Below are positions 5,887-35,837 of a DNA stretch of 43,509 nucleotides, in pieces. The position numbers and the translations under genes are program-made. The notes beneath the pieces were generated by a model. It was not told the origin of the DNA. It did no database searches and saw only the letters and a program-made list of their open reading frames with translations. The first letter of the stretch is position 1, and each line of letters starts with the position of its first letter. The DNA is from a virus, in IMG/VR virus record IMGVR_UViG_3300029286_001647; one strand, written 5' to 3'.

Positions 5887-6033
5887 TCAATCTCGTTCTT
5901 TAGCTTCTACGATTGTGACAGACACAATAGTTGCACCGATGATAACAACCAATACCGATACTGGATTGAGACAGCAAATTACAGCCGCAGCAGCCCAGAT
6001 ACCAGCAATCGCAACTCCTTTCCCAACACTCAT
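5887..6033 (-). CDS. small hydrophobic protein (48 aa), not in ORF track
   Basis: AGGAGG 7 nt upstream of ATG; 'MSVGKGVAIAGIWAAAAVICCLNPVSVLVVIIGATIV...' is one long TM segment. Confidence 0.35.
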   Translation of the reverse strand: MSVGKGVAIAGIWAAAAVICCLNPVSVLVVIIGATIVSVTIVEAKERD

Positions 6034-6044
6034 CTCATTCCTCC

Positions 6045-6242
6045 TTAACTTATATCCAAACAAGCATTACAGATAAAACCATCAAGCACAGAATGTAAAC
6101 AAGAGAAACATATTGTAGCGCCGCACATAATACATTCTTCTGTATCGCACTCGTCTACTCTCGCGCCGCAGTTATCACATTCTACTTCATCGCCATTTTC
6201 CTCATCCTGATACGTCATCGTTCTCCTCCTTATTCTTCTCAA
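6045..6242 (-). CDS. small zinc-ribbon protein (65 aa)
   Basis: multiple CxxC pairs. Confidence 0.4.
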   Translation of the reverse strand: MRRIRRRTMTYQDEENGDEVECDNCGARVDECDTEECIMCGATICFSCLHSVLDGFICNACLDIS

Positions 6243-6606
6243 GTTCTGCTATTTGTTTCTTAAGATCAGCTATGATACGATTTGCCCTTGCAAGCTCCTC
6301 ATTAGTCTTAGCAAGGCTCTGCATCTCTCCCATAATCTTCTCTTGGAAGTCTTTGCTTCTGGCTTCTTCTGAGAAGTTAAACAAGTGCATCATATTTGCT
6401 TCTCTAAAGATATACTCTGTAAGGACAAACAAATCATCATCATCTCTAAGACCAGTACCGCATTCACTGATTGCAGTTATAATGCTTAGATTCATCGGCT
6501 TCTCTTCTTTTAAAGCGCGAGAATAAGCTTTTGCAGCCGCCTTCATCGGTGTATCTGCGATAATTGCTGTCTCAAAATCACCACTTATAATATAATACTT
6601 TGGCAT
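6202..6606 (-). CDS. hypothetical protein with C-terminal coiled coil (134 aa)
   Basis: ORF track. Confidence 0.5.
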   Translation of the reverse strand: MPKYYIISGDFETAIIADTPMKAAAKAYSRALKEEKPMNLSIITAISECGTGLRDDDDLFVLTEYIFREANMMHLFNFSEEARSKDFQEKIMGEMQSLAKTNEELARANRIIADLKKQIAELEKNKEENDDVSG

Positions 6607-7118
6607 TACTCCTCCTTAACAGACTTTTTTAGCTCATTCAGACGCGCTATAATCTTATCTTGAACCCCTTCGAATGGCACTTTATTGTCAAACGTTGGTA
6701 TTGTATATTTCGTGACAACGGCAGAATTAGGTTCTCCTCCCTTATAATCAAACCTGCCCAAAGCGACGAAATCCTTTTTATCTACCTCGACTTCTACAAT
6801 ATAGCACTCGTATGAACAATGTATTAATTGGGCGCAATTGTTTTGAAGTAGAGCAATAGCCCCGCCTTCTATGATCGAGTCTACGCTTAAAAACAGATGA
6901 GCGCCCCTTGTCACTTCTTTAAGCTCAATCTCTAGATGAGAAAGAGTGTTATCTATTCTACTAGAATAGTTTTCACCGAGATTAATCTCCAATCCCATAT
7001 ATGGAGAAAGATATGCCTCAGGATAGCATCTAACAACCTTAAGAAATGTCTTTTTCTCGCCGTCTTTCCAATCTGCAAGAAACTTGCCAGTTGCCTCTAT
7101 ATCCGGTATTAAGCACAT
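6606..7118 (-). CDS. MC-family paralog 4 (170 aa, MCLIPDIEATGKFLADWKDGEKKTF)
   Basis: same motif set as the 2797-4207 trio. Confidence 0.6.
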   Translation of the reverse strand: MCLIPDIEATGKFLADWKDGEKKTFLKVVRCYPEAYLSPYMGLEINLGENYSSRIDNTLSHLEIELKEVTRGAHLFLSVDSIIEGGAIALLQNNCAQLIHCSYECYIVEVEVDKKDFVALGRFDYKGGEPNSAVVTKYTIPTFDNKVPFEGVQDKIIARLNELKKSVKEE

Positions 7119-19083: not shown

Positions 19084-19429
19084 TACAAAACTTTATTTCC
19101 CTCAAATCTCTTTTGAATACAGCAAACGAAGCTACTGCACCTATAAAAACATACTTTTTCTGTTTCTTCGCCGCTTTCCCCAAACGTAAGAAGTTTCTGC
19201 CTCTCACCTTATAATATGTTTTGTTTCTGATAAAAGAGCAAAGCGTAGAGAAGCTATCACTGTGAGTGGTGCATATCATAAGACCTAATCTAAGAAGTTC
19301 TCTGCAAACGAATATATCTCTATGATCCTTATTTAGAGAATTGCGCTGTGCATTCTTGATAAGATCTTTCATCTTTCGGCGGAAATTGTTAGGATTGTTA
19401 TTGTGCATCATTCGTACCGGCGAAGCCAA
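19040..19429 (-). CDS. hypothetical basic protein (129 aa)
   Basis: ORF track. Confidence 0.4.
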   Translation of the reverse strand: MASPVRMMHNNNPNNFRRKMKDLIKNAQRNSLNKDHRDIFVCRELLRLGLMICTTHSDSFSTLCSFIRNKTYYKVRGRNFLRLGKAAKKQKKYVFIGAVASFAVFKRDLREIKFCNEFVLLGGDANVTS

Positions 19430-19953
19430 CCTTTCTTATCTATATGCCTCACAGATTCCACTCCACGAAACTCCATTAAGTATCTTACCAGATGTTTCAA
19501 ACACTTATCATTTTGCTGTCCCTCAAAACGAGGCACAAAAATGGCATTTCCATAGTTCCTACGGCAATTACTGATCTTATCTTCAACAATAAGCATCTTC
19601 TCAATGTCATAACCCTTTTTCTTCACTTTATTTAGAGGCTTAATAAAGTCAGGGTCCATTGTCTCAGGGTCAAATACTCTTACACATCTATCGAATGCCC
19701 AAACGAATTCAAGTGATTCTTTACCGCCAGGGAAGATGTTTTTAACGATTTCATCGACGTAATCAGGAGAACCGGCTGACCACACGGCTGTCCTGAATGA
19801 CTCACAAACGGTTTTAAGGAAATCGTCTAGTCCGGGGCGCTTAAAGGTATAATAATTGCCTACAATGAAGTCTGGAACGTGTATAAGGGGTTTTCGAGAC
19901 GTGGAGTGGATGAGTGTTTCATCTAAATCAAAAATAACCAAAATCTCATCCAC
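19408..19953 (-). CDS. NIF/FCP1-like HAD phosphatase
   Basis: 'VIFDLDETLIHS' (DxDxT) matches the NLI-interacting-factor-like layout. Confidence 0.7.
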   Translation of the reverse strand: MDEILVIFDLDETLIHSTSRKPLIHVPDFIVGNYYTFKRPGLDDFLKTVCESFRTAVWSAGSPDYVDEIVKNIFPGGKESLEFVWAFDRCVRVFDPETMDPDFIKPLNKVKKKGYDIEKMLIVEDKISNCRRNYGNAIFVPRFEGQQNDKCLKHLVRYLMEFRGVESVRHIDKKGWLRRYE

Positions 19954-27934: not shown

Positions 27935-28016
27935 ACTTATTCTCCTATATATCTATTTTACGGAATTTATTATTTTCTATTGGTTTGCAAGGATAGCCAT
28001 GATTGTGATTATATGA

Positions 28017-28120
28017 GATGTAGTGTCTATCCCCAAGGCAAGCCCTCACTAACGTTCGTCCTTCATACAATTTCTGTAATACAGAAATTGTATTACGGAT
28101 TGGGGTTTGCGACACTACAT
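28017..28120. promoter_or_regulatory. structured element: outer 10-bp inverted repeat enclosing a 29-nt perfect palindrome (28065-28093)
   Basis: 'atgtagtgtc'/'gacactacat', 'ccccaa'/'ttgggg', central 'atacaatttctgtaatacagaaattgtat'. Confidence 0.45.
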
Positions 28121-28129
28121 TTCATATAA

Positions 28130-28873
28130 TCACTCAAATAAATCGATATGGTTCTGTCTGTGGTTCTCTATCCGCTGCTTCGCCATTTCGTAGTACTTAG
28201 GCTCTTTCTCCACAAGCAAATAATCCAATCCCTTAATCTCACAAGCAATACCAGTGGTTGCAGATCCGCACATCGGGTCTAATACAAATCCTTTATCGGG
28301 ACAACCTATATCCAACATACGAGTGATTAGCCATAAAGGTTTCTGATGTGGATGACCGACTCTCTCACTTCCATGAGTAATAGAACTTTTCCAGCAGTTC
28401 CTTAATTGAGTTCCACCATTATGCAACTTAGACTTTTCATAATCAAAGAAGTAGTCTTTAGTCTTTGCTGCCCAAATGATATGTTCACAGCTTTCTATTA
28501 GTCCCTGTCTCGTCACGCTAAAGAAAGCATTATCCTTAAACCATACAATAGAATTGACGATCCAGAAGCCAAAATGCCTTTTAAGCAAGTCGCCAAGGAA
28601 ATAGATGTTATGGAGCGATCCAAAGGCGAAAATGCTTCCTGTGTCCTTCAACAAAGGCACAAGGGTTTCTATATTGGTCTTGTAGGAATCATATTGCTCT
28701 TGAACGGAATTGAATGTATCCCAATCCTCAGCAGACTTCTTCCACTTCTTTTCCTTATGTTCTATTTTGGAATTGCCTATTCCGTATGGAGGATCCCAAA
28801 GAACAAAATCTACTGTATTAGGCTGAACGTGATTGCTCAGGTTCGCCATATCATCATTTATAATTCCGCCCAT
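28130..28873 (-). CDS. DNA methyltransferase, beta-class N6-adenine/N4-cytosine (N6_N4_Mtase family)
   Basis: motif IV 'DPPYG' before motif I 'LDPMCGSATTGIA'; 'HPHQKP'. Confidence 0.85.
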   Translation of the reverse strand: MGGIINDDMANLSNHVQPNTVDFVLWDPPYGIGNSKIEHKEKKWKKSAEDWDTFNSVQEQYDSYKTNIETLVPLLKDTGSIFAFGSLHNIYFLGDLLKRHFGFWIVNSIVWFKDNAFFSVTRQGLIESCEHIIWAAKTKDYFFDYEKSKLHNGGTQLRNCWKSSITHGSERVGHPHQKPLWLITRMLDIGCPDKGFVLDPMCGSATTGIACEIKGLDYLLVEKEPKYYEMAKQRIENHRQNHIDLFE

Positions 28874-28883
28874 ATAACTCCTA

Positions 28884-29624
28884 TTAGCTTATTTCTACAT
28901 CATCAATATAATGATCGAAGCTTTCTTTGTTTATCTCAAACCCACAAGGTCTTCTATTGAGACGCTGAGACACAATCGCTGTCGTAAAGTTCCCTAAGAA
29001 GAAATCACAAACAACATCTTCTTCTTGAGAAGAATAGCTTATGATCTTCTCAATCAATGCTTCTGGAAGTTTGTTCACGTTCTTTACTGCGCCAGGGCAA
29101 TACTCTTTGTTGATCGTCCAAACATCTTCCATATCCTTATAAACCATAGAACGACCTTTATTAGTTCTCGCATCGTCTTGGAACCTACAATTCCTATTGA
29201 AATACGGTTTGGCTTTCTTGCTCTTTTTGCAATACAGAATATGGTAATGTGAGCTGACAAACTTCTTTTTCGTGTAAACTCCAAAGTTGTATTTCCATAT
29301 AATGTGATTGATTACAACAAATCCTGCTTCATTCAGAGCGTTTAGGACATGGTTAAGGTTTGTCCATCCTGAGAAGACATAGAAGCTTCCATTAGGCTTT
29401 AGAACGCGATATGCTTCTTTCATCCATTCTGTAGTGAACCTGTAATAATCTGGAGGCGCTTCTACATATCCAGATATGATGTTATTCGCCTTACGATTAT
29501 AATGTTGCTTATCGAAAGATGTTTCTGATAGACCGAAAGGAGGATCGCAGATCATAAGGTCTACAGATCCATCAGCAATATATTTTTTCGCGCCAGAAAT
29601 GCAATCTTCATTGTATATATTCAT
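28884..29624 (-). CDS. DNA methyltransferase, beta-class N6A/N4C, with degenerate motif I
   Basis: 'MICDPPFG' then 'VVCDFFLGNFTTAIV'. Confidence 0.75.
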   Translation of the reverse strand: MNIYNEDCISGAKKYIADGSVDLMICDPPFGLSETSFDKQHYNRKANNIISGYVEAPPDYYRFTTEWMKEAYRVLKPNGSFYVFSGWTNLNHVLNALNEAGFVVINHIIWKYNFGVYTKKKFVSSHYHILYCKKSKKAKPYFNRNCRFQDDARTNKGRSMVYKDMEDVWTINKEYCPGAVKNVNKLPEALIEKIISYSSQEEDVVCDFFLGNFTTAIVSQRLNRRPCGFEINKESFDHYIDDVEIS

Positions 29625-30118
29625 TTCTTATTGGCGCGCTCCTTAAGGTCTTCTCTGACTTTCGTAATTGCTTCGCCCAGCCAGTTAGTCCCTTGCCAAT
29701 TCTTCCTGTCGTAAATGCGAGGATCATCCTTTGCCATATGTATTCCCCATATAGCATCCGTAGGAGATGCTTCCACTAACAAAGTCCCATCCGTCTCGAC
29801 AAGGCTTTTCATCATATGATCATTTTGAGTGAACTTCGCCATATTGCCTTGATATACAATGTCTTTGGCTACTGCTTGCCATCTCTCTACATCAAAATCT
29901 TTTACCTGCTTACCCAAAGCTTTCTGCTCTCTGGGGTCAGATGTTGACATAATTCGCTCAAGGATTTCATAATCTGCAAACATGACAGCTTTATTTGCCA
30001 TCATCCACTGTTCCGCTGAATTATACTTAACCCCATCAATTACGAAATCGCATCTTGCCCATTGGGAAAAAGGACCACCATAGAAAAACGTAAACTTATC
30101 ATACTTCTCGAAATCCAT
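29621..30118 (-). CDS. NADAR (YbiA/DUF1768) domain protein
   Basis: 'FFYGGPFSQWARCDFVIDGVKYNSAEQWMMANKAVMF' and 'EASPTDAIWGIH' parallel E. coli YbiA (recalled). Confidence 0.75.
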   Translation of the reverse strand: MDFEKYDKFTFFYGGPFSQWARCDFVIDGVKYNSAEQWMMANKAVMFADYEILERIMSTSDPREQKALGKQVKDFDVERWQAVAKDIVYQGNMAKFTQNDHMMKSLVETDGTLLVEASPTDAIWGIHMAKDDPRIYDRKNWQGTNWLGEAITKVREDLKERANKK

Positions 30119-30126
30119 ACTACCTC

Positions 30127-30519
30127 CTATTTCATTGACTTATAAGACTTGAGCATTAGCGCAACTCCCGCCGCAAGCATAATGATCATCAAAATAAAAT
30201 GCGTTGTCTTAATGTTCATGAAGAATTGAATTCTGCTGATAATCTCAATCCCGATAATCCCAAGACCACACCACATCAAGACCCACGCCCAAGTCCAACG
30301 TGCATTATAGAACAAAGCCACTACACCTGCGAAGAAGGGAACAAAAATAATGCCCATAGAAGTGGTATGTCCAGACCCACGAAAACAACCGCTGACCCAT
30401 CCATATCCTCCCGTAGTCACTCGAACAGAATCGAAGAAGAAATAGACTGCCAGCGCAGCCAGAAGGAAACCGATCAGATAAGTTCCAACTCCACCACTTG
30501 TTCCACCGCTACCACGCAT
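30127..30519 (-). CDS. membrane protein (130 aa, 4 TM)
   Basis: hydrophobic throughout. Confidence 0.5.
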   Translation of the reverse strand: MRGSGGTSGGVGTYLIGFLLAALAVYFFFDSVRVTTGGYGWVSGCFRGSGHTTSMGIIFVPFFAGVVALFYNARWTWAWVLMWCGLGIIGIEIISRIQFFMNIKTTHFILMIIMLAAGVALMLKSYKSMK

Positions 30520-30947
30520 TTCTTGTTTTCCTTTTCTTTTGATGGCCAGAAGTATTCAAGATTAGGACCGATGTCCCAATGAAATTGTCCGTAATGGACA
30601 GGATCTTTTCTCAACAGATTACTTTGATGACTTCGATGATAACGATTATCACCTAACCACCAAGGAATAGATACCTTGCCTAAATTAGTTCTCATTTCTT
30701 CAAACTTCGGCAGCAAGCTATCATTGTATCCCCTGCTAATCCATTCACGGCACATATAGATACCATAAACGCAAAGCAGAGGTTCAAAGCCTTTCCATTG
30801 TTTGACAGCAGGATGATTGCGCCAACCTCCGTCATTCAGCAACGTATTGAGTATCTGCCAAGCTTCGACTCGCTGTTTGCCGCATCGCCGATAATCGAGG
30901 CACTTAGCAGTTTCTCTGAACGACATATATGGTAAAAAGGTTTGCAT
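30474..30947 (-). CDS. hypothetical protein (157 aa)
   Basis: ORF track. Confidence 0.5.
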   Translation of the reverse strand: MQTFLPYMSFRETAKCLDYRRCGKQRVEAWQILNTLLNDGGWRNHPAVKQWKGFEPLLCVYGIYMCREWISRGYNDSLLPKFEEMRTNLGKVSIPWWLGDNRYHRSHQSNLLRKDPVHYGQFHWDIGPNLEYFWPSKEKENKKCVVAVEQVVELELI

Positions 30948-30995
30948 TGCTATACCTAAATCATTTTCCTTTCGACAGCCATTTTAACCGATAAA

Positions 30996-31976
30996 TCATT
31001 CACCTTTCCGTTTTTCGCGGAAATCGCAAACCCAACATTTATGTGCATAAGAGAATCGTATATTCCCATTCACTCCATCTTCTGTACGATAATCACCGGC
31101 AGATGCGTGATACTTGCACTCTTGCCATAAATGACAAGATTCACTTTTGCAGATTGGAACGCAGCCAGGAACAAATCCATTTGTCACTGCCTTTTGATTC
31201 AAAGAGATATAAGCGTCAACAGGTTCGTAATAAGGCTCTCCGCGGGAGACAAATGAATCTACTCTCGAAAATATGTCTTCTACAATCTGAACTTTGTTAT
31301 TCGATTTATGCCATTCACTCTCCCCAAAATTAGATGGAGGAACAGTATCCAACAGGATAGCACAATGAGTTTTGGCTTCCCTCATCATCTTCTTGTCATT
31401 GACAACTACGAGATTTGCCTGATTTCTCTCCAAAGACTTAAATCCAATCTCAAGAAGCTCATCAAAAGTTCTATTGATTTCGAACTTGAAAGCGACAATA
31501 AAGAAATTAGGGTCTTTATTCCATTCACGGAAATGAGTGATGATCTTTGGATTGAGAACAATCTTTTGCCTCATATACTCAATCAAAGCTTCTGGATCAT
31601 CAGATTTCAGCTTGATACCTTCACCTTCGTCTTTTTTGAAACCGAAGTCAGCAACTGCCATAGCGTGAACAATGGCATCAGCTTTCGGAACAAGAAGCTC
31701 TAGCATTTCAAAAGCGTCTTGTGCAGAATAGACTGTATAGGTCTTAACCTCTCCTCTATAGTAGTTTCTATTCGCAATAGATTCTACAATTGTCCTGCCA
31801 TATTCTATATCCTTAGACCCTGTCGTTTGTACGAAATCAACATCCCATCCCTTTTCGGAGAAGTATGCGGCTGCAATTGCTCCAAGAGCGCCAGACGATA
31901 CGTTTGTGATCAAACGAAAATCGTCTACCTTCTCTTTTGTCCCGCCTGAAGTCACGATTACTTTTTTGTTAGGCAT
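30996..31976 (-). CDS. coaB: phosphopantothenate-cysteine ligase (CoaB domain) with Cys-rich C-terminal extension
   Basis: 'KKVIVTSGGTKEKVDDFRLITNVSSGALGAIAA' matches CoaB/DFP; start set at ATG 31976 with a GGAGAG ribosome-binding site. Confidence 0.8.
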   Translation of the reverse strand: MPNKKVIVTSGGTKEKVDDFRLITNVSSGALGAIAAAYFSEKGWDVDFVQTTGSKDIEYGRTIVESIANRNYYRGEVKTYTVYSAQDAFEMLELLVPKADAIVHAMAVADFGFKKDEGEGIKLKSDDPEALIEYMRQKIVLNPKIITHFREWNKDPNFFIVAFKFEINRTFDELLEIGFKSLERNQANLVVVNDKKMMREAKTHCAILLDTVPPSNFGESEWHKSNNKVQIVEDIFSRVDSFVSRGEPYYEPVDAYISLNQKAVTNGFVPGCVPICKSESCHLWQECKYHASAGDYRTEDGVNGNIRFSYAHKCWVCDFREKRKGE

Positions 31977-31977
31977 T

Positions 31978-32235
31978 TTATCTCTCCGATTCTGGAATCT
32001 TAGGTCTTTCAACCACTTTGCAACCTAGCGCCGTAGCAATTGCAGAAACTATTTCTGAACATTTCTCCAGATGTATTTCTTTGTCGAATTGAGTCTCAAG
32101 GAAATACGGTGTAATCGCATTGATTACATTTCCGTTTAGGTATAGATTAACATGGACGAGTTGCATACGTCCACCTACAACAAGCTTTCTATATTCTTTT
32201 TCGACTATCAAAACATTCTCATCGCTCATAGTCAT
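31978..32235 (-). CDS. hypothetical protein (85 aa)
   Basis: ORF track. Confidence 0.4.
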   Translation of the reverse strand: MTMSDENVLIVEKEYRKLVVGGRMQLVHVNLYLNGNVINAITPYFLETQFDKEIHLEKCSEIVSAIATALGCKVVERPKIPESER

Positions 32236-32794
32236 CTCCTTGCCATTTTAAGGCATTGTTAAGGCGTATAGTAGGATCTAAAAGGTTTTCTGGCTGAGGT
32301 TGATCCAATTCCCATCCTCCCGCCGAGATCTTACCATGTCTGTACAAATGCAAATGCAACATTGATCGTGGTCTACCTTTGTCTTTCTTCAACACTCTCT
32401 TAACATATCCAACCAGATCGCCAGCTAAAACAGGTTCGCCTATTTTAATTGTACGAGATACGTCAATCTCTCCATAAGCGACAACTCCGCTTTCGCCAGC
32501 TATAAGAACAGCTTCCGTATCTTCCCACCAATCGCAACCGGCTTTCTTTCCAGTCCAAGCTTCGATAAGAACAGGAATCCCATCCTCAACTGCGTAAACA
32601 GGAGTTCCTTCAGGGCAATATAAGTCTACTCCTCCGTGAACATCATGTTTTCTCTTCGCACCAAAAGCGCCACAATGTTCTCCAAAAGGGATTTCTACTT
32701 GTTTAGTGATATCGATCTTACGAAATGATTCAGAATCATCCGTTAAATCAAGCACTTCCATTCTAAGAGGGAATTTCCAAAGCGGCATCTTCAT
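32219..32794 (-). CDS. M23/LytM peptidoglycan endopeptidase
   Basis: 'HGGVDLYCPEGTPVYAVEDG' (HxxxD) and 'MLHLHLY' (HxH). Confidence 0.75.
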   Translation of the reverse strand: MKMPLWKFPLRMEVLDLTDDSESFRKIDITKQVEIPFGEHCGAFGAKRKHDVHGGVDLYCPEGTPVYAVEDGIPVLIEAWTGKKAGCDWWEDTEAVLIAGESGVVAYGEIDVSRTIKIGEPVLAGDLVGYVKRVLKKDKGRPRSMLHLHLYRHGKISAGGWELDQPQPENLLDPTIRLNNALKWQGDDYER

Positions 32795-33362
32795 CCTCCA
32801 ATAACTTATTTACAAACTCAACTACTTTTCTTGGTTCTTCTGCTTTACCCTTACCCACATCTCCACAAGCCAGTCTCCCCACTACTGGCTCTATAAAATG
32901 GATAACAGGTCGATGTATATGATTGAGTATATCGGTAAAAGCGAATAACAAAGTCCTCATATTTTTGACATTGATGGGATGCTCATACATCCTCGTGTTG
33001 CAAGCAGGGCAAATAACAATCCTGCACTTATCTAATGGCAAAGCCATAAAAGTAGTAGAAAGCAAATCATCTGCAATCCCATTGGCAAACTTAGCCATAA
33101 TGTTTACAGTCGCAGGATAAACGAGAAATACATCCGCCCAAGTCGCAAGTTCAATATGTTTGATCGAAGTACGTCTTTCCCACATACTTGTATGTACTTC
33201 TCCTCCAGAGACGCTTTCGATTGTCAATGGAGTAATAAACTTTGTGGCATTCTCTGTCATAATAGTCTTAACTTTATGACCAGTCGCCAGTAAGCCAGAG
33301 ATAACGTCACAAGCCTTATAGGCTGCAATCCCGCCAGTAATACCAAGTAGTATGTTTGCCAT
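32763..33362 (-). CDS. coaC: phosphopantothenoylcysteine decarboxylase (CoaC flavoprotein)
   Basis: 'MANILLGITGGIAAYK', 'FITPLTIESVSG', 'ICPACN', 'LACGDVGKGK' parallel E. coli Dfp N-domain; AGGAG ribosome-binding site. Confidence 0.85.
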   Translation of the reverse strand: MANILLGITGGIAAYKACDVISGLLATGHKVKTIMTENATKFITPLTIESVSGGEVHTSMWERRTSIKHIELATWADVFLVYPATVNIMAKFANGIADDLLSTTFMALPLDKCRIVICPACNTRMYEHPINVKNMRTLLFAFTDILNHIHRPVIHFIEPVVGRLACGDVGKGKAEEPRKVVEFVNKLLEDEDAALEIPS

Positions 33363-33366
33363 GTTC

Positions 33367-34422
33367 TTACTCCTGTGATGGAGCGACTGCCCATCCGATT
33401 TCAGGCTCAACAGATACGCTATCTCTTGAGGAGACTCCAAGTAGCCCAGCATAGAAATCATACTTGTATTCTGTCCCAAGGTATTCCCATATAAACGGGA
33501 CTTTGCTGACAGATGATGGAAGCCTATCTGAAGTCAATCCTCCAAATAAATCTGCTGTAATAACATCAATATAAGGATTTCTTGTGAAAGGATCTCCATC
33601 ATTATATTGATTCTCAAGATACGGGAAGAGATTTACCATCCACCCTTTAATATATGGACCTCCGCTCTGGTTCTCTTTATTATAGGCTCTGCTCCAGAAA
33701 GCAGAATTAGCATTCCCTTTCTTAGCCTCGATAAACTCGTCCAAAATCTCCAGCACGGACTTAGTCCACCACCCAAGACCGTATTGTTCCCATTGAGCGA
33801 CTTTCTCTTTCATCTTCTCCCAATCGCCCAATGTCCCGCAGATATAGATGTTTGGAATACCGCACATTGTACACACTCTATATTCAAAATATGCTTTCAT
33901 TGCATCCATCAATACGATCTCACTTGCTGCTTTCTCTACGTTGCCAGTTGTAGAGAAGTCAGCTACGATAAGGCTGTGAGTTTGTTCACCGATATGTTTC
34001 TTAATTTCGGCGGAAAAAAGAGCAAAGTCTTTCTCCCAATCATTATCAGGACTTCCTTTAACAAGGCTATCGTCGCGTACTCTGATTAAAAGCTTACCTT
34101 CGTGAGAAACAAACTTGCTTCTTAGATCTTCTGCATTCATATTGATATGATTAGCAAGACCCTGAGTTAGAGTAATCCACATAACATCAGGCGTGATCCA
34201 CAGGTTATGATGATGATCGAAAGCATATTCAACAGCAGACATAAGGCAATGAAAAGGAGCAGCATTGATGACTTCTACGTTCTTAGAGCAAGCCTCTGGA
34301 CTCACTCCAGAAAGCTTCTTGAAGAAGCTTCCCAGAGCCATACTGCCCTGAGTAGATACTTTCATCTCTGCAACGTTATTCCCCTGGACTTTAGTTGTTT
34401 CCATCATCCCATTGAATCTCAT
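33367..34422 (-). CDS. hypothetical protein (351 aa)
   Basis: ORF track; no family recognised. Confidence 0.55.
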   Translation of the reverse strand: MRFNGMMETTKVQGNNVAEMKVSTQGSMALGSFFKKLSGVSPEACSKNVEVINAAPFHCLMSAVEYAFDHHHNLWITPDVMWITLTQGLANHINMNAEDLRSKFVSHEGKLLIRVRDDSLVKGSPDNDWEKDFALFSAEIKKHIGEQTHSLIVADFSTTGNVEKAASEIVLMDAMKAYFEYRVCTMCGIPNIYICGTLGDWEKMKEKVAQWEQYGLGWWTKSVLEILDEFIEAKKGNANSAFWSRAYNKENQSGGPYIKGWMVNLFPYLENQYNDGDPFTRNPYIDVITADLFGGLTSDRLPSSVSKVPFIWEYLGTEYKYDFYAGLLGVSSRDSVSVEPEIGWAVAPSQE

Positions 34423-34433
34423 ATCTTATCTCC

Positions 34434-34643
34434 TTAATCTTTTTTTCTCGCAAAAATAGCTACGAGCATCGCTACTATGAAAATCAAAACAAAAGCGATT
34501 ATCACCATAGATACCGCTGAAATAACCATAGACATAAACGCAGCTATAATCGAGGGAAATACTTTAGTAAAGAAAGGGTAATAGATAAATGCCAGAGGCA
34601 TTACTATCGCCAGCAAAAACGCTTTCCTTATTAAGTCAAACAT
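34434..34643 (-). CDS. small 2-TM membrane protein (69 aa)
   Basis: hydrophobic. Confidence 0.4.
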   Translation of the reverse strand: MFDLIRKAFLLAIVMPLAFIYYPFFTKVFPSIIAAFMSMVISAVSMVIIAFVLIFIVAMLVAIFARKKD

Positions 34644-35738
34644 TTACTTTCTCCCAAACCACCTATTATATATGACATCGTAAACACCATTTCCCCTAAG
34701 TTTCAAAAGTGCGATGTCCACTTTTTTGCGCAAATCACTATCATGGATAGCAAACCCGTAGTATTGAAGGTCAAACATCCAATCCAAAGCCATCACTTTG
34801 CCAGACCCATCTCCATTGGCAAAATACATCACATTGGGAGAATCATAGACAACAATTTCGATGTCGCCATTTACAAGCTTCTTATACGCTTCCTCAATGG
34901 TTTTTACAGTCTTAACCTTTGCGCCAATCTTCTTCAATGCACTAACACTTGTAGTGTTCTCAACAGTATACACTTCTTTCCCGTTCAAATCTGACTGGCA
35001 AGTGATAGCGCCATTCAAACGATCAGAAGTAAAGTCTGCTGCTAATCTCGCAATCAAGTTCGCAAAGAAACCATATCCTAACAAGATAAGCATAATGACA
35101 ATAGCTCTGCCTACCTTCTTTTTAGCTACAACATCTCCAAATCCGACAGTCGAGCTTGTCACTACGGAGAAGTAGATAGCCTTTCCCAGTCCGGGAATAT
35201 ACTTCTTATCGAAATGCTCTGACCCTCTTTCTGCCACCCAAATGAGATGGGCAAAGAATATGATAAAGATGGTATAAGCCATCAGTAATTCGACTACTTC
35301 TGGCTTCACAAACGAGTCTACGAAAAACTTAATAAAACGAAACTTTGCAAGAGATTTCCATTGCATAGCTTCTTTCGATTTGCCTTGAGGGATAAGCACT
35401 CTCAATCCCGAATCGAGATAATGCTGAGAAAAGTTCACTTGCTTTTCGCGATCTTCGTCAATTGTGATGCCGGATATGCCGATGTCTGCTTTGCCAGATG
35501 AGACATTCGGAATAATTTCACCGAAATCTACTACCTGATACTTGTAGGAAAGGTTTAATTCTTTTGCAATAGCCTCCCAAAGGTCTATATCAAACCCGGT
35601 GACCTTATCGCCGTCTACATTGACGCAAGGGGCGAATTCAGACAGATTGACGATTAAAGGCTTTTGTGACCCTTGTGTAGAAGGTTCTGCCGCTAGGCAG
35701 AAAGACGAAATGAATAGAATAGATAAGAGCGATTTCAT
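34644..35738 (-). CDS. GluR0-type ligand-gated K+ channel (substrate-binding-protein lobes S1/S2 split by a 2-TM K+ pore)
   Basis: signal peptide 'MKSLLSILFISSFCLAAEP'; S1 'GFDIDLWEAIAKELNL...GISGITIDEDR'; M1; pore 'YFSVVTSSTVGFGDV'; M2; S2 lobe to C-term. Confidence 0.8.
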   Translation of the reverse strand: MKSLLSILFISSFCLAAEPSTQGSQKPLIVNLSEFAPCVNVDGDKVTGFDIDLWEAIAKELNLSYKYQVVDFGEIIPNVSSGKADIGISGITIDEDREKQVNFSQHYLDSGLRVLIPQGKSKEAMQWKSLAKFRFIKFFVDSFVKPEVVELLMAYTIFIIFFAHLIWVAERGSEHFDKKYIPGLGKAIYFSVVTSSTVGFGDVVAKKKVGRAIVIMLILLGYGFFANLIARLAADFTSDRLNGAITCQSDLNGKEVYTVENTTSVSALKKIGAKVKTVKTIEEAYKKLVNGDIEIVVYDSPNVMYFANGDGSGKVMALDWMFDLQYYGFAIHDSDLRKKVDIALLKLRGNGVYDVIYNRWFGRK

Positions 35739-35837
35739 TGCAGTGAACCTTTCTGTATCATCCAGTAGAGAGTAAAGGGACAATCCGTTATCCCTTTACC
35801 CTCTCTGAATGAAACCCTAACAACGAAACGATTGTGC

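Follow-up and report, generated by a model that had tools for sequence, protein, structure and literature searches.

Huge phages carry a putative coenzyme A (CoA) biosynthesis module in which the genes for a CoaB ligase and a CoaC decarboxylase have a conserved third partner, an M23-like gene that is mostly fused to CoaC. Here we analyse a form of this module with all three genes separate, at positions 30,996 to 33,362 of IMG/VR virus record IMGVR_UViG_3300029286_001647, a complete metagenomic contig of 43.5 kb with a GC content of ~40% (hereafter the window). What appears to be new is the conserved third partner and the way in which it is fused; CoaB and CoaC belong to enzyme kinds that are already known. 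The best overall explanation, in which we place slightly more belief than doubt, is a co-translated viral module that forms 4'-phosphopantetheine together with an M23-like zinc-hydrolase partner.

The locus consists of four minus-strand genes that overlap or sit 1-4 nt apart, and this tight packing suggests that they are probably co-translated. They encode a CoaC-like phosphopantothenoylcysteine (PPC) decarboxylase of 199 amino acids (aa; 32763-33362), a flavin mononucleotide (FMN) flavoprotein of the homo-oligomeric flavin-containing Cys decarboxylase (HFCD) type; a 189-aa protein with an M23-like zinc-hydrolase fold (32219-32788); an orphan small open reading frame (ORF) of 83 aa (31978-32229); and a CoaB-like ORF of 326 aa (30996-31976, from the ATG at 31976), made up of a ligase domain (residues 1 to ~236; 31269-31976), recognised by its DFP match, its 2gk4 profile match and its motifs, and a linker with a Cys-rich C-terminal tail (30996-31268; conserved core ~31026-31151). 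An AGGAG lies upstream of the CoaC ATG at 33362, and the M23-like gene overlaps the 3' end of CoaC by 26 nt; translation of the latter more likely begins at the ATG at 32788, located 6 nt after a GGAGG and in agreement with a public 189-aa gene call, than at the alternative ATG at 32794. An initial annotation of this DNA had placed CoaB, CoaC, a small ORF and an M23 gene here on the minus strand, and the ORFs and Pfam bear this out. The DFP and flavoprotein profile searches that it had proposed put both domains above their Pfam gathering scores: CoaC matched Flavoprotein (PF02441) with 122.5 bits versus 22.7 (E = 1.6e-35), and CoaB matched DFP (PF04127) over residues 3-197 with 95.5 bits versus a cut-off of 22 (E = 4.4e-27). 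As these family E-values range from 1e-27 to 1e-35 and the trio of CoaB, CoaC and M23-like genes recurs in dozens of independent contigs, the assignments are not a matter of chance.

A profile of the phage CoaB family, built from 25 sequences, matched Streptococcus pneumoniae CoaB (2gk4) over its full length with an E-value of 5.7e-55, and also matched the full-length solved structures 5int (2.2e-32), mycobacterial CoaBC, human PPCS, yeast Cab2, and Escherichia coli CoaB (2.1e-17). The N-terminal motif of the window protein, VTSGGTKEKVDDFRLITNVSSGALG, follows the pattern SGGTxExVDxFRxITNxSSG; N25 is kept in at least 90% of the 25 sequences and lines up with the corresponding motif of 2gk4, 5int, and 6tgv, and K122, within IKLKS, is invariant in the family and aligns to AKIKK of mycobacterial CoaB. 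We take N25 to occupy the position of E. coli Asn210, and K122 to be the first Lys of KxKK, E. coli Lys289; the roles of these Asn and Lys residues were reportedly described by Kupke and by Stanitzek, both in 2004. The motifs AVADF, KLKS, NPKII, FKFE, and VNDK are present as well. Loss of the catalytic Lys and Asn, named beforehand as the finding that would overturn the assignment, was not seen, both N25 and K122 being conserved across the phage CoaB family. The window CoaB is thus best described as a divergent CoaB-like member with an intact-looking active site and, as judged from its sequence, it is of the monofunctional streptococcal type. The separation of CoaB from CoaC had been presented as an oddity, a view that does not hold, since separate genes are normal for this type. 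With the monofunctional CoaB and CoaC of Streptococcus and Enterococcus (TIGR02114 and TIGR02113) the window pair shares the separate genes, the motifs and the end-to-end 2gk4 alignment; in contrast to them, its genes score far under the equivalog cut-offs, stand on a phage-like contig, and are accompanied by an M23-like partner and a Cys-rich tail.

The window CoaC is 45-54% identical to many stand-alone CoaC proteins and scored 175.2 bits on TIGR00521 over the CoaC half of that model, which is twice the length of the protein and has a cut-off of 219.7. When it is aligned to human PPCDC (1qzu) and Mycobacterium smegmatis CoaBC (6tgv), its active-site His (IKHIEL), its Asn within the PxMNxxM motif (PACNTRM), and its clamp Cys (RLACGDVGKG) are all in place, and these three residues were found in all 35 viral CoaC domains examined, whether fused or not. 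The clamp Cys, within ACGD, sets PPC decarboxylases apart from the peptide decarboxylases EpiD and MrsD. With all checked signature residues kept, the window CoaC appears to be a divergent, intact-looking member of its family, and the description of CoaB and CoaC as genuine, separate genes is upheld.

CoaB or CoaC matches were present in 13 of 50,697 deposited phage records, only three of the 13 being uncultured huge phages, in agreement with the earlier remark that phage-borne CoA genes are uncommon. Our locus scans were pattern-limited, and the fractions given here and below describe the loci recovered rather than a census. An M23-like gene was found within 8 kb in 23 of 29 viral CoaB loci, and one further locus carries it elsewhere on the contig. 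Among 28 non-redundant viral trios, in which all gene orders occur, CoaC and the M23-like protein form a single ORF in 22, always with CoaC N-terminal and the M23-like part C-terminal, and the window is one of the six unfused trios; in the 735-kb phage LR756501, a CoaC-M23 fusion is followed by CoaB. The pairwise identity matrices of CoaB, CoaC, and the M23-like protein across loci are correlated (r 0.65-0.80, values reached by 0 of 2000 permutations), and the M23-like part is the best conserved of the three, with a mean identity of 44% versus 37-38%. Starting from the M23-like gene, CoaB and CoaC lie within 6 kb in 16 of 76 viral loci, and no other neighbour is conserved.

The M23-like protein matched Pfam M23 (PF01551) with 31.1 bits against a cut-off of 28.7 and belongs to a distinct subfamily of ~180-aa proteins comprising more than 480 clusters. 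Its AlphaFold2 (AF2) model has a predicted local distance difference test score (pLDDT) of 94.9, and the best matching folds were LytM, LECT2, DipM, and lysostaphin, with a Foldseek probability of 1.00 and a template modelling (TM) score of ~0.7 on the target; a viral fold library returned one close relative, the other matches being generic M23. Within the subfamily, the HxxxD motif (H53-G-G-V-D57) is invariant in 29 members. The window reads MLHLHL at the HxH pair, of which H147 is the only conserved His, position 149 being H, S, Q, A, or E across the family. Position 145 is an invariant Met, and alignment to 6yj1 puts H147 on the second His of HxH; Met145 would stand in for the other His of the pair if the conserved His is the zinc ligand. 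The third catalytic His (LytM His260, in the YxH motif) is absent: an invariant Glu109, within YGE, aligns with the His of zoocin A YAHL, and it is for this reason that we name the protein M23-like rather than an M23 peptidase. The subfamily has WW and KDKGRP motifs of its own, and the window protein contains no cell-wall-binding or targeting domain and, by eye and with no predictor run, no signal peptide. The gene had initially been annotated as an M23/LytM endopeptidase lying between the CoA genes; the fold and the position stand. The gene is not an unrelated intruder but a conserved partner that is mostly fused to CoaC, and in its product one canonical catalytic His is Glu and the other His of HxH is not conserved. 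Members of the subfamily also occur in cultured jumbo phages that infect Pseudomonas, Xanthomonas, and Stenotrophomonas, namely PA5oct and its relatives, XacN1, and CM1/RAS14, where they are set among small accessory genes. In PA5oct, the homologue is gp441, which went undetected in virions (PMC7318152). Two viral members have extensions: the protein at 5989-7089 of locus L064 carries a methyltransferase-like one at its C-terminus (LLDLCGGTG motif), and that of L073 a long one at its N-terminus.

The association extends to bacteria. In species-representative genomes, 19 of 26 M23-like loci adjoin a DFP-like or CoaC-like (Flavoprotein) gene, which is DFP-like in 18 of the 19. In Bdellovibrionota, a CoaBC-like gene, whose product scores 184-200 bits on TIGR00521 against the cut-off of 219.7, is followed by an overlapping M23-like gene in ordinary chromosomal surroundings that include, for example, glnA and a short-chain dehydrogenase/reductase (SDR) gene, and in one locus (L127) all three domains, Flavoprotein, DFP, and M23, are joined in a single 674-aa protein. 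The Bdellovibrionota CoaBC-like proteins tied or fused to an M23-like partner (L125, L127, L128, L131, L147, and L151) have NIFRG in place of NxSSG, which together with their missing ACGD clamp Cys suggests an altered chemistry. In Alphaproteobacteria, the M23-like gene is preceded by a gene for a ~490-aa protein that combines a helix-turn-helix (HTH) domain, a divergent DFP-like domain, and a class II aldolase-like domain, and this aldolase-fusion gene has a canonical, divergently oriented CoaBC upstream of it in two loci (L139 and L148). A conserved 139-aa ORF also follows the M23-like gene in the alphaproteobacterial loci L126, L132, L135-L140, and L148 (for example at L137, 4526-6525).

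In the explanation that we favour, phage CoaB would activate 4'-phosphopantothenate by cytidine or adenosine triphosphate (CTP or ATP) and ligate L-cysteine to it, phage CoaC would decarboxylate the product to 4'-phosphopantetheine, and the host would provide pantothenate kinase (PanK) and the last two steps, CoaD and CoaE, so that the phage would secure or raise the flux to CoA and to holo-acyl carrier protein (holo-ACP). The M23-like protein would work with CoaB and CoaC, probably bound to CoaC. More tentatively, and with our doubts outweighing our belief, it may be a zinc amidohydrolase that acts on a pantothenoyl-amide, likeliest (phospho)pantetheine, intact or thiol-damaged, and yields 4'-phosphopantothenate, to which CoaB and CoaC would then attach a new thiol derived from cysteine. 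This guess fits the fusion to CoaC, the basic KDKGRP loop as a possible phosphate site, and the stand-alone M23-like genes, whose products would then act alongside host CoaBC. There is a precedent in PANK4, the DUF89 domain of which hydrolyses oxidised 4'-phosphopantetheine (PMC8669784). In its broader form, the proposal is that the M23-like protein is an enzyme of (phospho)pantetheine metabolism common to huge phages, Bdellovibrionota, and some Alphaproteobacteria, which with CoaB and CoaC makes up a new thiol-renewal or cysteamine-releasing cycle, and this too we put forward only as a speculative possibility. If true, jumbo phages with the M23-like gene alone, such as PA5oct and XacN1, would be manipulating the host CoA pathway.

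A number of observations weigh against this picture. CoaBC is not known as a flux-controlling step of CoA synthesis, which leaves the benefit to the phage unclear, and the substrate of the M23-like protein is purely inferred. Both window enzymes score below the NCBIfam equivalog cut-offs, CoaB with 103.3 versus 265 on NF005231 and 90.6 versus 217.2 on TIGR02114, and CoaC with 150.1 versus 261.4 on the coaC_strep model TIGR02113. The M23-like subfamily is commoner without phage CoaB or CoaC nearby, as seen in ~55 of 76 viral loci within 6 kb and also in PA5oct and XacN1, and some phages, such as LR756500 and that of locus L002, have CoaB without an M23-like gene. The CoaC-like parts from Bdellovibrionota are without the ACGD clamp Cys, unlike every viral copy, which suggests that the bacterial systems may run a related but different chemistry. 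Among coding-strand ORFs of at least 45 aa in the 43.5-kb window, no ACP, phosphopantetheinyl transferase (PPTase), CoaA, CoaD, or CoaE was found, and the idea in the initial annotation that the genes support a 4'-phosphopantetheine-dependent process, for which an ACP or PPTase gene was to be sought, therefore gains no support from the window. The viral origin of the window is itself inferred: there are no capsid or terminase genes in it, a megablast search of positions 28000-36000 against deposited phages gave no match, and an exact 40-mer of the CoaB gene likewise found none in IMG/VR. From the style of its genes and the huge-phage relatives of the module we nevertheless regard a viral origin as very likely, the window probably being a fragment of a huge (giant) phage genome.

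The recurrence of the M23-like gene beside CoaB and CoaC could also be explained in other ways. In one alternative, the module would serve a cysteamine or product cycle rather than a CoA boost: CoaB would load cysteine on 4'-phosphopantothenate, CoaC would decarboxylate it, and the M23-like hydrolase would free cysteamine and regenerate the carrier, with phages that possess only the M23-like gene using host CoaBC. A triad of ligase, decarboxylase- or lyase-like enzyme, and hydrolase does recur with a varying middle enzyme, which is CoaC in phages and, in Alphaproteobacteria, the class II aldolase-like domain, with a distinct housekeeping CoaBC beside the triad in L139 and L148; many phages and bacteria have the M23-like gene by itself; and its fusion partner, CoaC, makes what would be the substrate of the hydrolase. 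Such a cycle would, however, burn CTP and cysteine, and neither the window nor the related loci have an evident use for cysteamine or a further conserved neighbour, and we consider it improbable. We hold it equally improbable that the M23-like domain is non-catalytic and serves the phage PPC decarboxylase as a structural or regulatory subunit, comparable to degenerate LytM domains. EnvC and NlpD carry degenerate LytM domains that activate other enzymes, and LECT2 retains zinc without peptidase activity; LECT2 and the LytM domains of DipM and EnvC are among the best fold and sequence matches of the M23-like protein. A role of this kind would agree with the presence of Glu109 at one canonical catalytic His position and the lack of conservation of the other HxH His (Met145 if the conserved His is the zinc ligand), and in the fusions the M23-like part holds the C-terminal place that CoaB has in bacterial CoaBC. 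Against it, HxxxD, one HxH His, Glu109, and the KDKGRP loop are kept at ~44% mean identity, an active-site-like pattern, and lone M23-like genes occur in phages and bacteria with no CoaC nearby to regulate.

Simpler still would be chance neighbours, with CoaB and CoaC as ordinary auxiliary metabolic genes and the M23 gene as an unrelated peptidoglycan endopeptidase, or lysin. Pfam and PHROGs do group the M23-like protein with M23 peptidases and endolysins, and the PA5oct homologue is annotated as a murein hydrolase, but the adjacency recurs in all gene orders, in 22 independent-looking CoaC fusions, and in a bacterial triple fusion, which makes coincidence quite improbable. A role as endolysin or virion lysin is likewise unlikely given that no signal peptide was seen by eye, that there is no cell-wall-binding domain, that Glu109 replaces one canonical catalytic His and the other His of HxH is not conserved, that the setting is one of accessory genes, and that gp441 was not detected in the PA5oct virion. 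Least probable of all, and rejected here, is a peptide modification system resembling those for ribosomally synthesised and post-translationally modified peptides (RiPPs), in which CoaC would be an EpiD-type peptidyl-cysteine decarboxylase, the M23-like protein would remove the leader peptide, and the precursor would be the small ORF with its VVGG motif. HFCD flavoproteins do include RiPP decarboxylases, M23 enzymes cleave Gly-Gly bonds, and CoaC gives a weak match to CypD; however, that match reaches 33 bits compared with 150-175 bits on the CoaC models, the clamp Cys is kept, and the small ORF lacks a C-terminal Cys as well as any relative in other loci. The 4'-phosphopantetheine-forming module with a hydrolase partner is thus the explanation that we retain.

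Set beside known systems, this module combines familiar parts in a different arrangement. Bacterial bifunctional CoaBC (Dfp; TIGR00521; 6tgv and 1u7u) is predicted to share its two reactions, the N-terminal place of CoaC in fusions, and the catalytic His, Asn, and Cys of CoaC and Asn and Lys of CoaB; in huge phages, however, it is the M23-like domain that CoaC carries at its C-terminus, CoaB being a separate gene, and in the window all three are separate. The fold, HxxxD, and one HxH His are common to the M23-like protein and M23/LytM proteins such as LytM, lysostaphin, and zoocin A and the non-catalytic EnvC, DipM, and LECT2, from which it differs in its Glu109, its KDKGRP and WW motifs, and its ties to CoaB and CoaC rather than to lysis or tail genes. 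The analogy with PANK4, in which pantothenate kinase is joined to the DUF89 damage-control phosphatase, is functional only: in both cases a hydrolase is joined to a CoA-pathway enzyme, but the fold, the bond cleaved (a phosphoester in PANK4), and the pathway step all differ. Our literature search found no description of phage CoaB and CoaC or of a CoaC-M23 association. The synthesis of CoA is viewed as a closed route of five steps. An additional conserved domain, joined to CoaC in most of the huge-phage copies and to CoaBC-like proteins in some bacteria, would suggest that a reaction or control point not yet described exists around 4'-phosphopantetheine. CoA would also become one more cofactor whose supply large phages take over, alongside nicotinamide adenine dinucleotide (NAD+), folate, and queuosine precursors. 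Phage-borne steps of cofactor synthesis are common to this module and to the viral coaD and coaE reported in snow viromes (PMC11097641) and the NAD+ synthesis reported for jumbo phages (PMC11662467), although the steps concerned differ. The presence of the M23-like gene in cultured jumbo phages makes the question directly testable by genetics and metabolomics; if the partner proves to be only a scaffold or a lysin, what remains is a pair of auxiliary metabolic genes, rare yet ordinary.

Two components of the locus lie outside the conserved trio. The C-terminal tail of CoaB was missing from all 24 aligned CoaB relatives. Since the 326-aa CoaB-plus-tail protein is identical on four contigs from at least two samples, the extension is not an assembly artefact. 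The Cys-rich string cited in the initial annotation sits at residues ~272-319, and the core consists of C276, C281, C287, H290, and C317 (CX4CX5CX2H...C) with an SAGDYRTEDG motif. An exhaustive HMMER search of 1.84 billion representatives recovered only seven other clusters that match the tail, with E-values of 1e-7 to 8e-4, and the eight relatives share an invariant C/C/C/H/C set and an SAGD[YF]R[ST]E[DG]G motif rather than two CxxC pairs. Stand-alone tail-domain proteins of ~90-125 aa are encoded in seven viral contigs with no CoaB, CoaC, or M23 gene nearby; these (L085-L091, for example L085 at 5956-6255) follow the pattern CxxExCx[FHY][RK][RK]xC[AS]NHx[ST]AGDFR[ST]EDG. There was no Pfam match for the tail at an E-value of 0.01, and its AF2 model was unusable (pLDDT 53.8). 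The tail had been called zinc-ribbon-like, and the Cys-rich extension is real, though no zinc ribbon is demonstrable in its Cys3-His-Cys pattern. By the distribution of these matches, the tail is a rare small phage domain that is joined to CoaB in this lineage only, and it is plausibly metal-binding. The small ORF more likely starts at 32229, which gives the 83 aa of the gene called in public assemblies, than at the ATG at 32235, which gives 85 aa. Searches against Pfam, NCBIfam, PHROGs, and PADLOC returned nothing for it, and none of the related loci recovered contains a relative; we accordingly place it outside the conserved module; the 92-aa ORFs in the equivalent position of L010-L013 show no similarity to it (hhalign probability 0.6%).

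Nearly all genes of the window lie on the minus strand; they are short ORFs packed closely together, the majority without a family match, and the window contains no tRNA. Families that could be recognised are RtcB, a tail-fibre-like protein, a major vault protein (MVP)/vault-like protein, NADAR, ADP-ribosylglycohydrolase, DenV, PspA, two DNA methyltransferases, a GluR0-like channel, kinase and phosphatase genes, HNH, NUDIX, CYTH, and RNase T. A tblastn search with the tail-fibre-like protein gave no match, and PADLOC, run on ten proteins of the region, also gave none and so provides no link to a known defence system. Upstream of CoaC, a DUF4419 protein (1.7e-71; 33367-34422, minus strand) ends 4 nt before the CoaC start; neither it nor DenV nor the remaining window neighbours are tied to the module in any other locus. 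The GluR0-like ligand-gated potassium channel, two genes upstream of CoaC (34644-35783, minus strand), combines a periplasmic binding domain, a K+ channel pore, and ligand-gated-channel motifs. A GC-rich block at ~35000-39000 (0.48-0.50 versus ~0.40 elsewhere) holds a PspA/IM30-like gene (35838-36518) and three ORFs without a family match. A set of minus-strand genes related to DNA and ADP-ribose comprises, directly downstream of CoaB at 28130-30947, a tandem pair of N6/N4 DNA methyltransferases, NADAR, and a pyrimidine-dimer glycosylase of the DenV type, and, ~26 kb further downstream, the ADP-ribosylglycohydrolase (1408-2325). The vault-like protein (14965-17241, minus strand) is 758 aa long and has major vault protein domains (MVP_shoulder, 6.9e-28; Vault_3, 1.4e-11), with no PHROG match. 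Finally, positions 19408-19953 and 39732-43112 (minus strand) hold a eukaryote-like signalling set composed of a NIF/CTD-type phosphatase and protein-kinase-like, PP2C-like, and vWA proteins, together with an HNH endonuclease.

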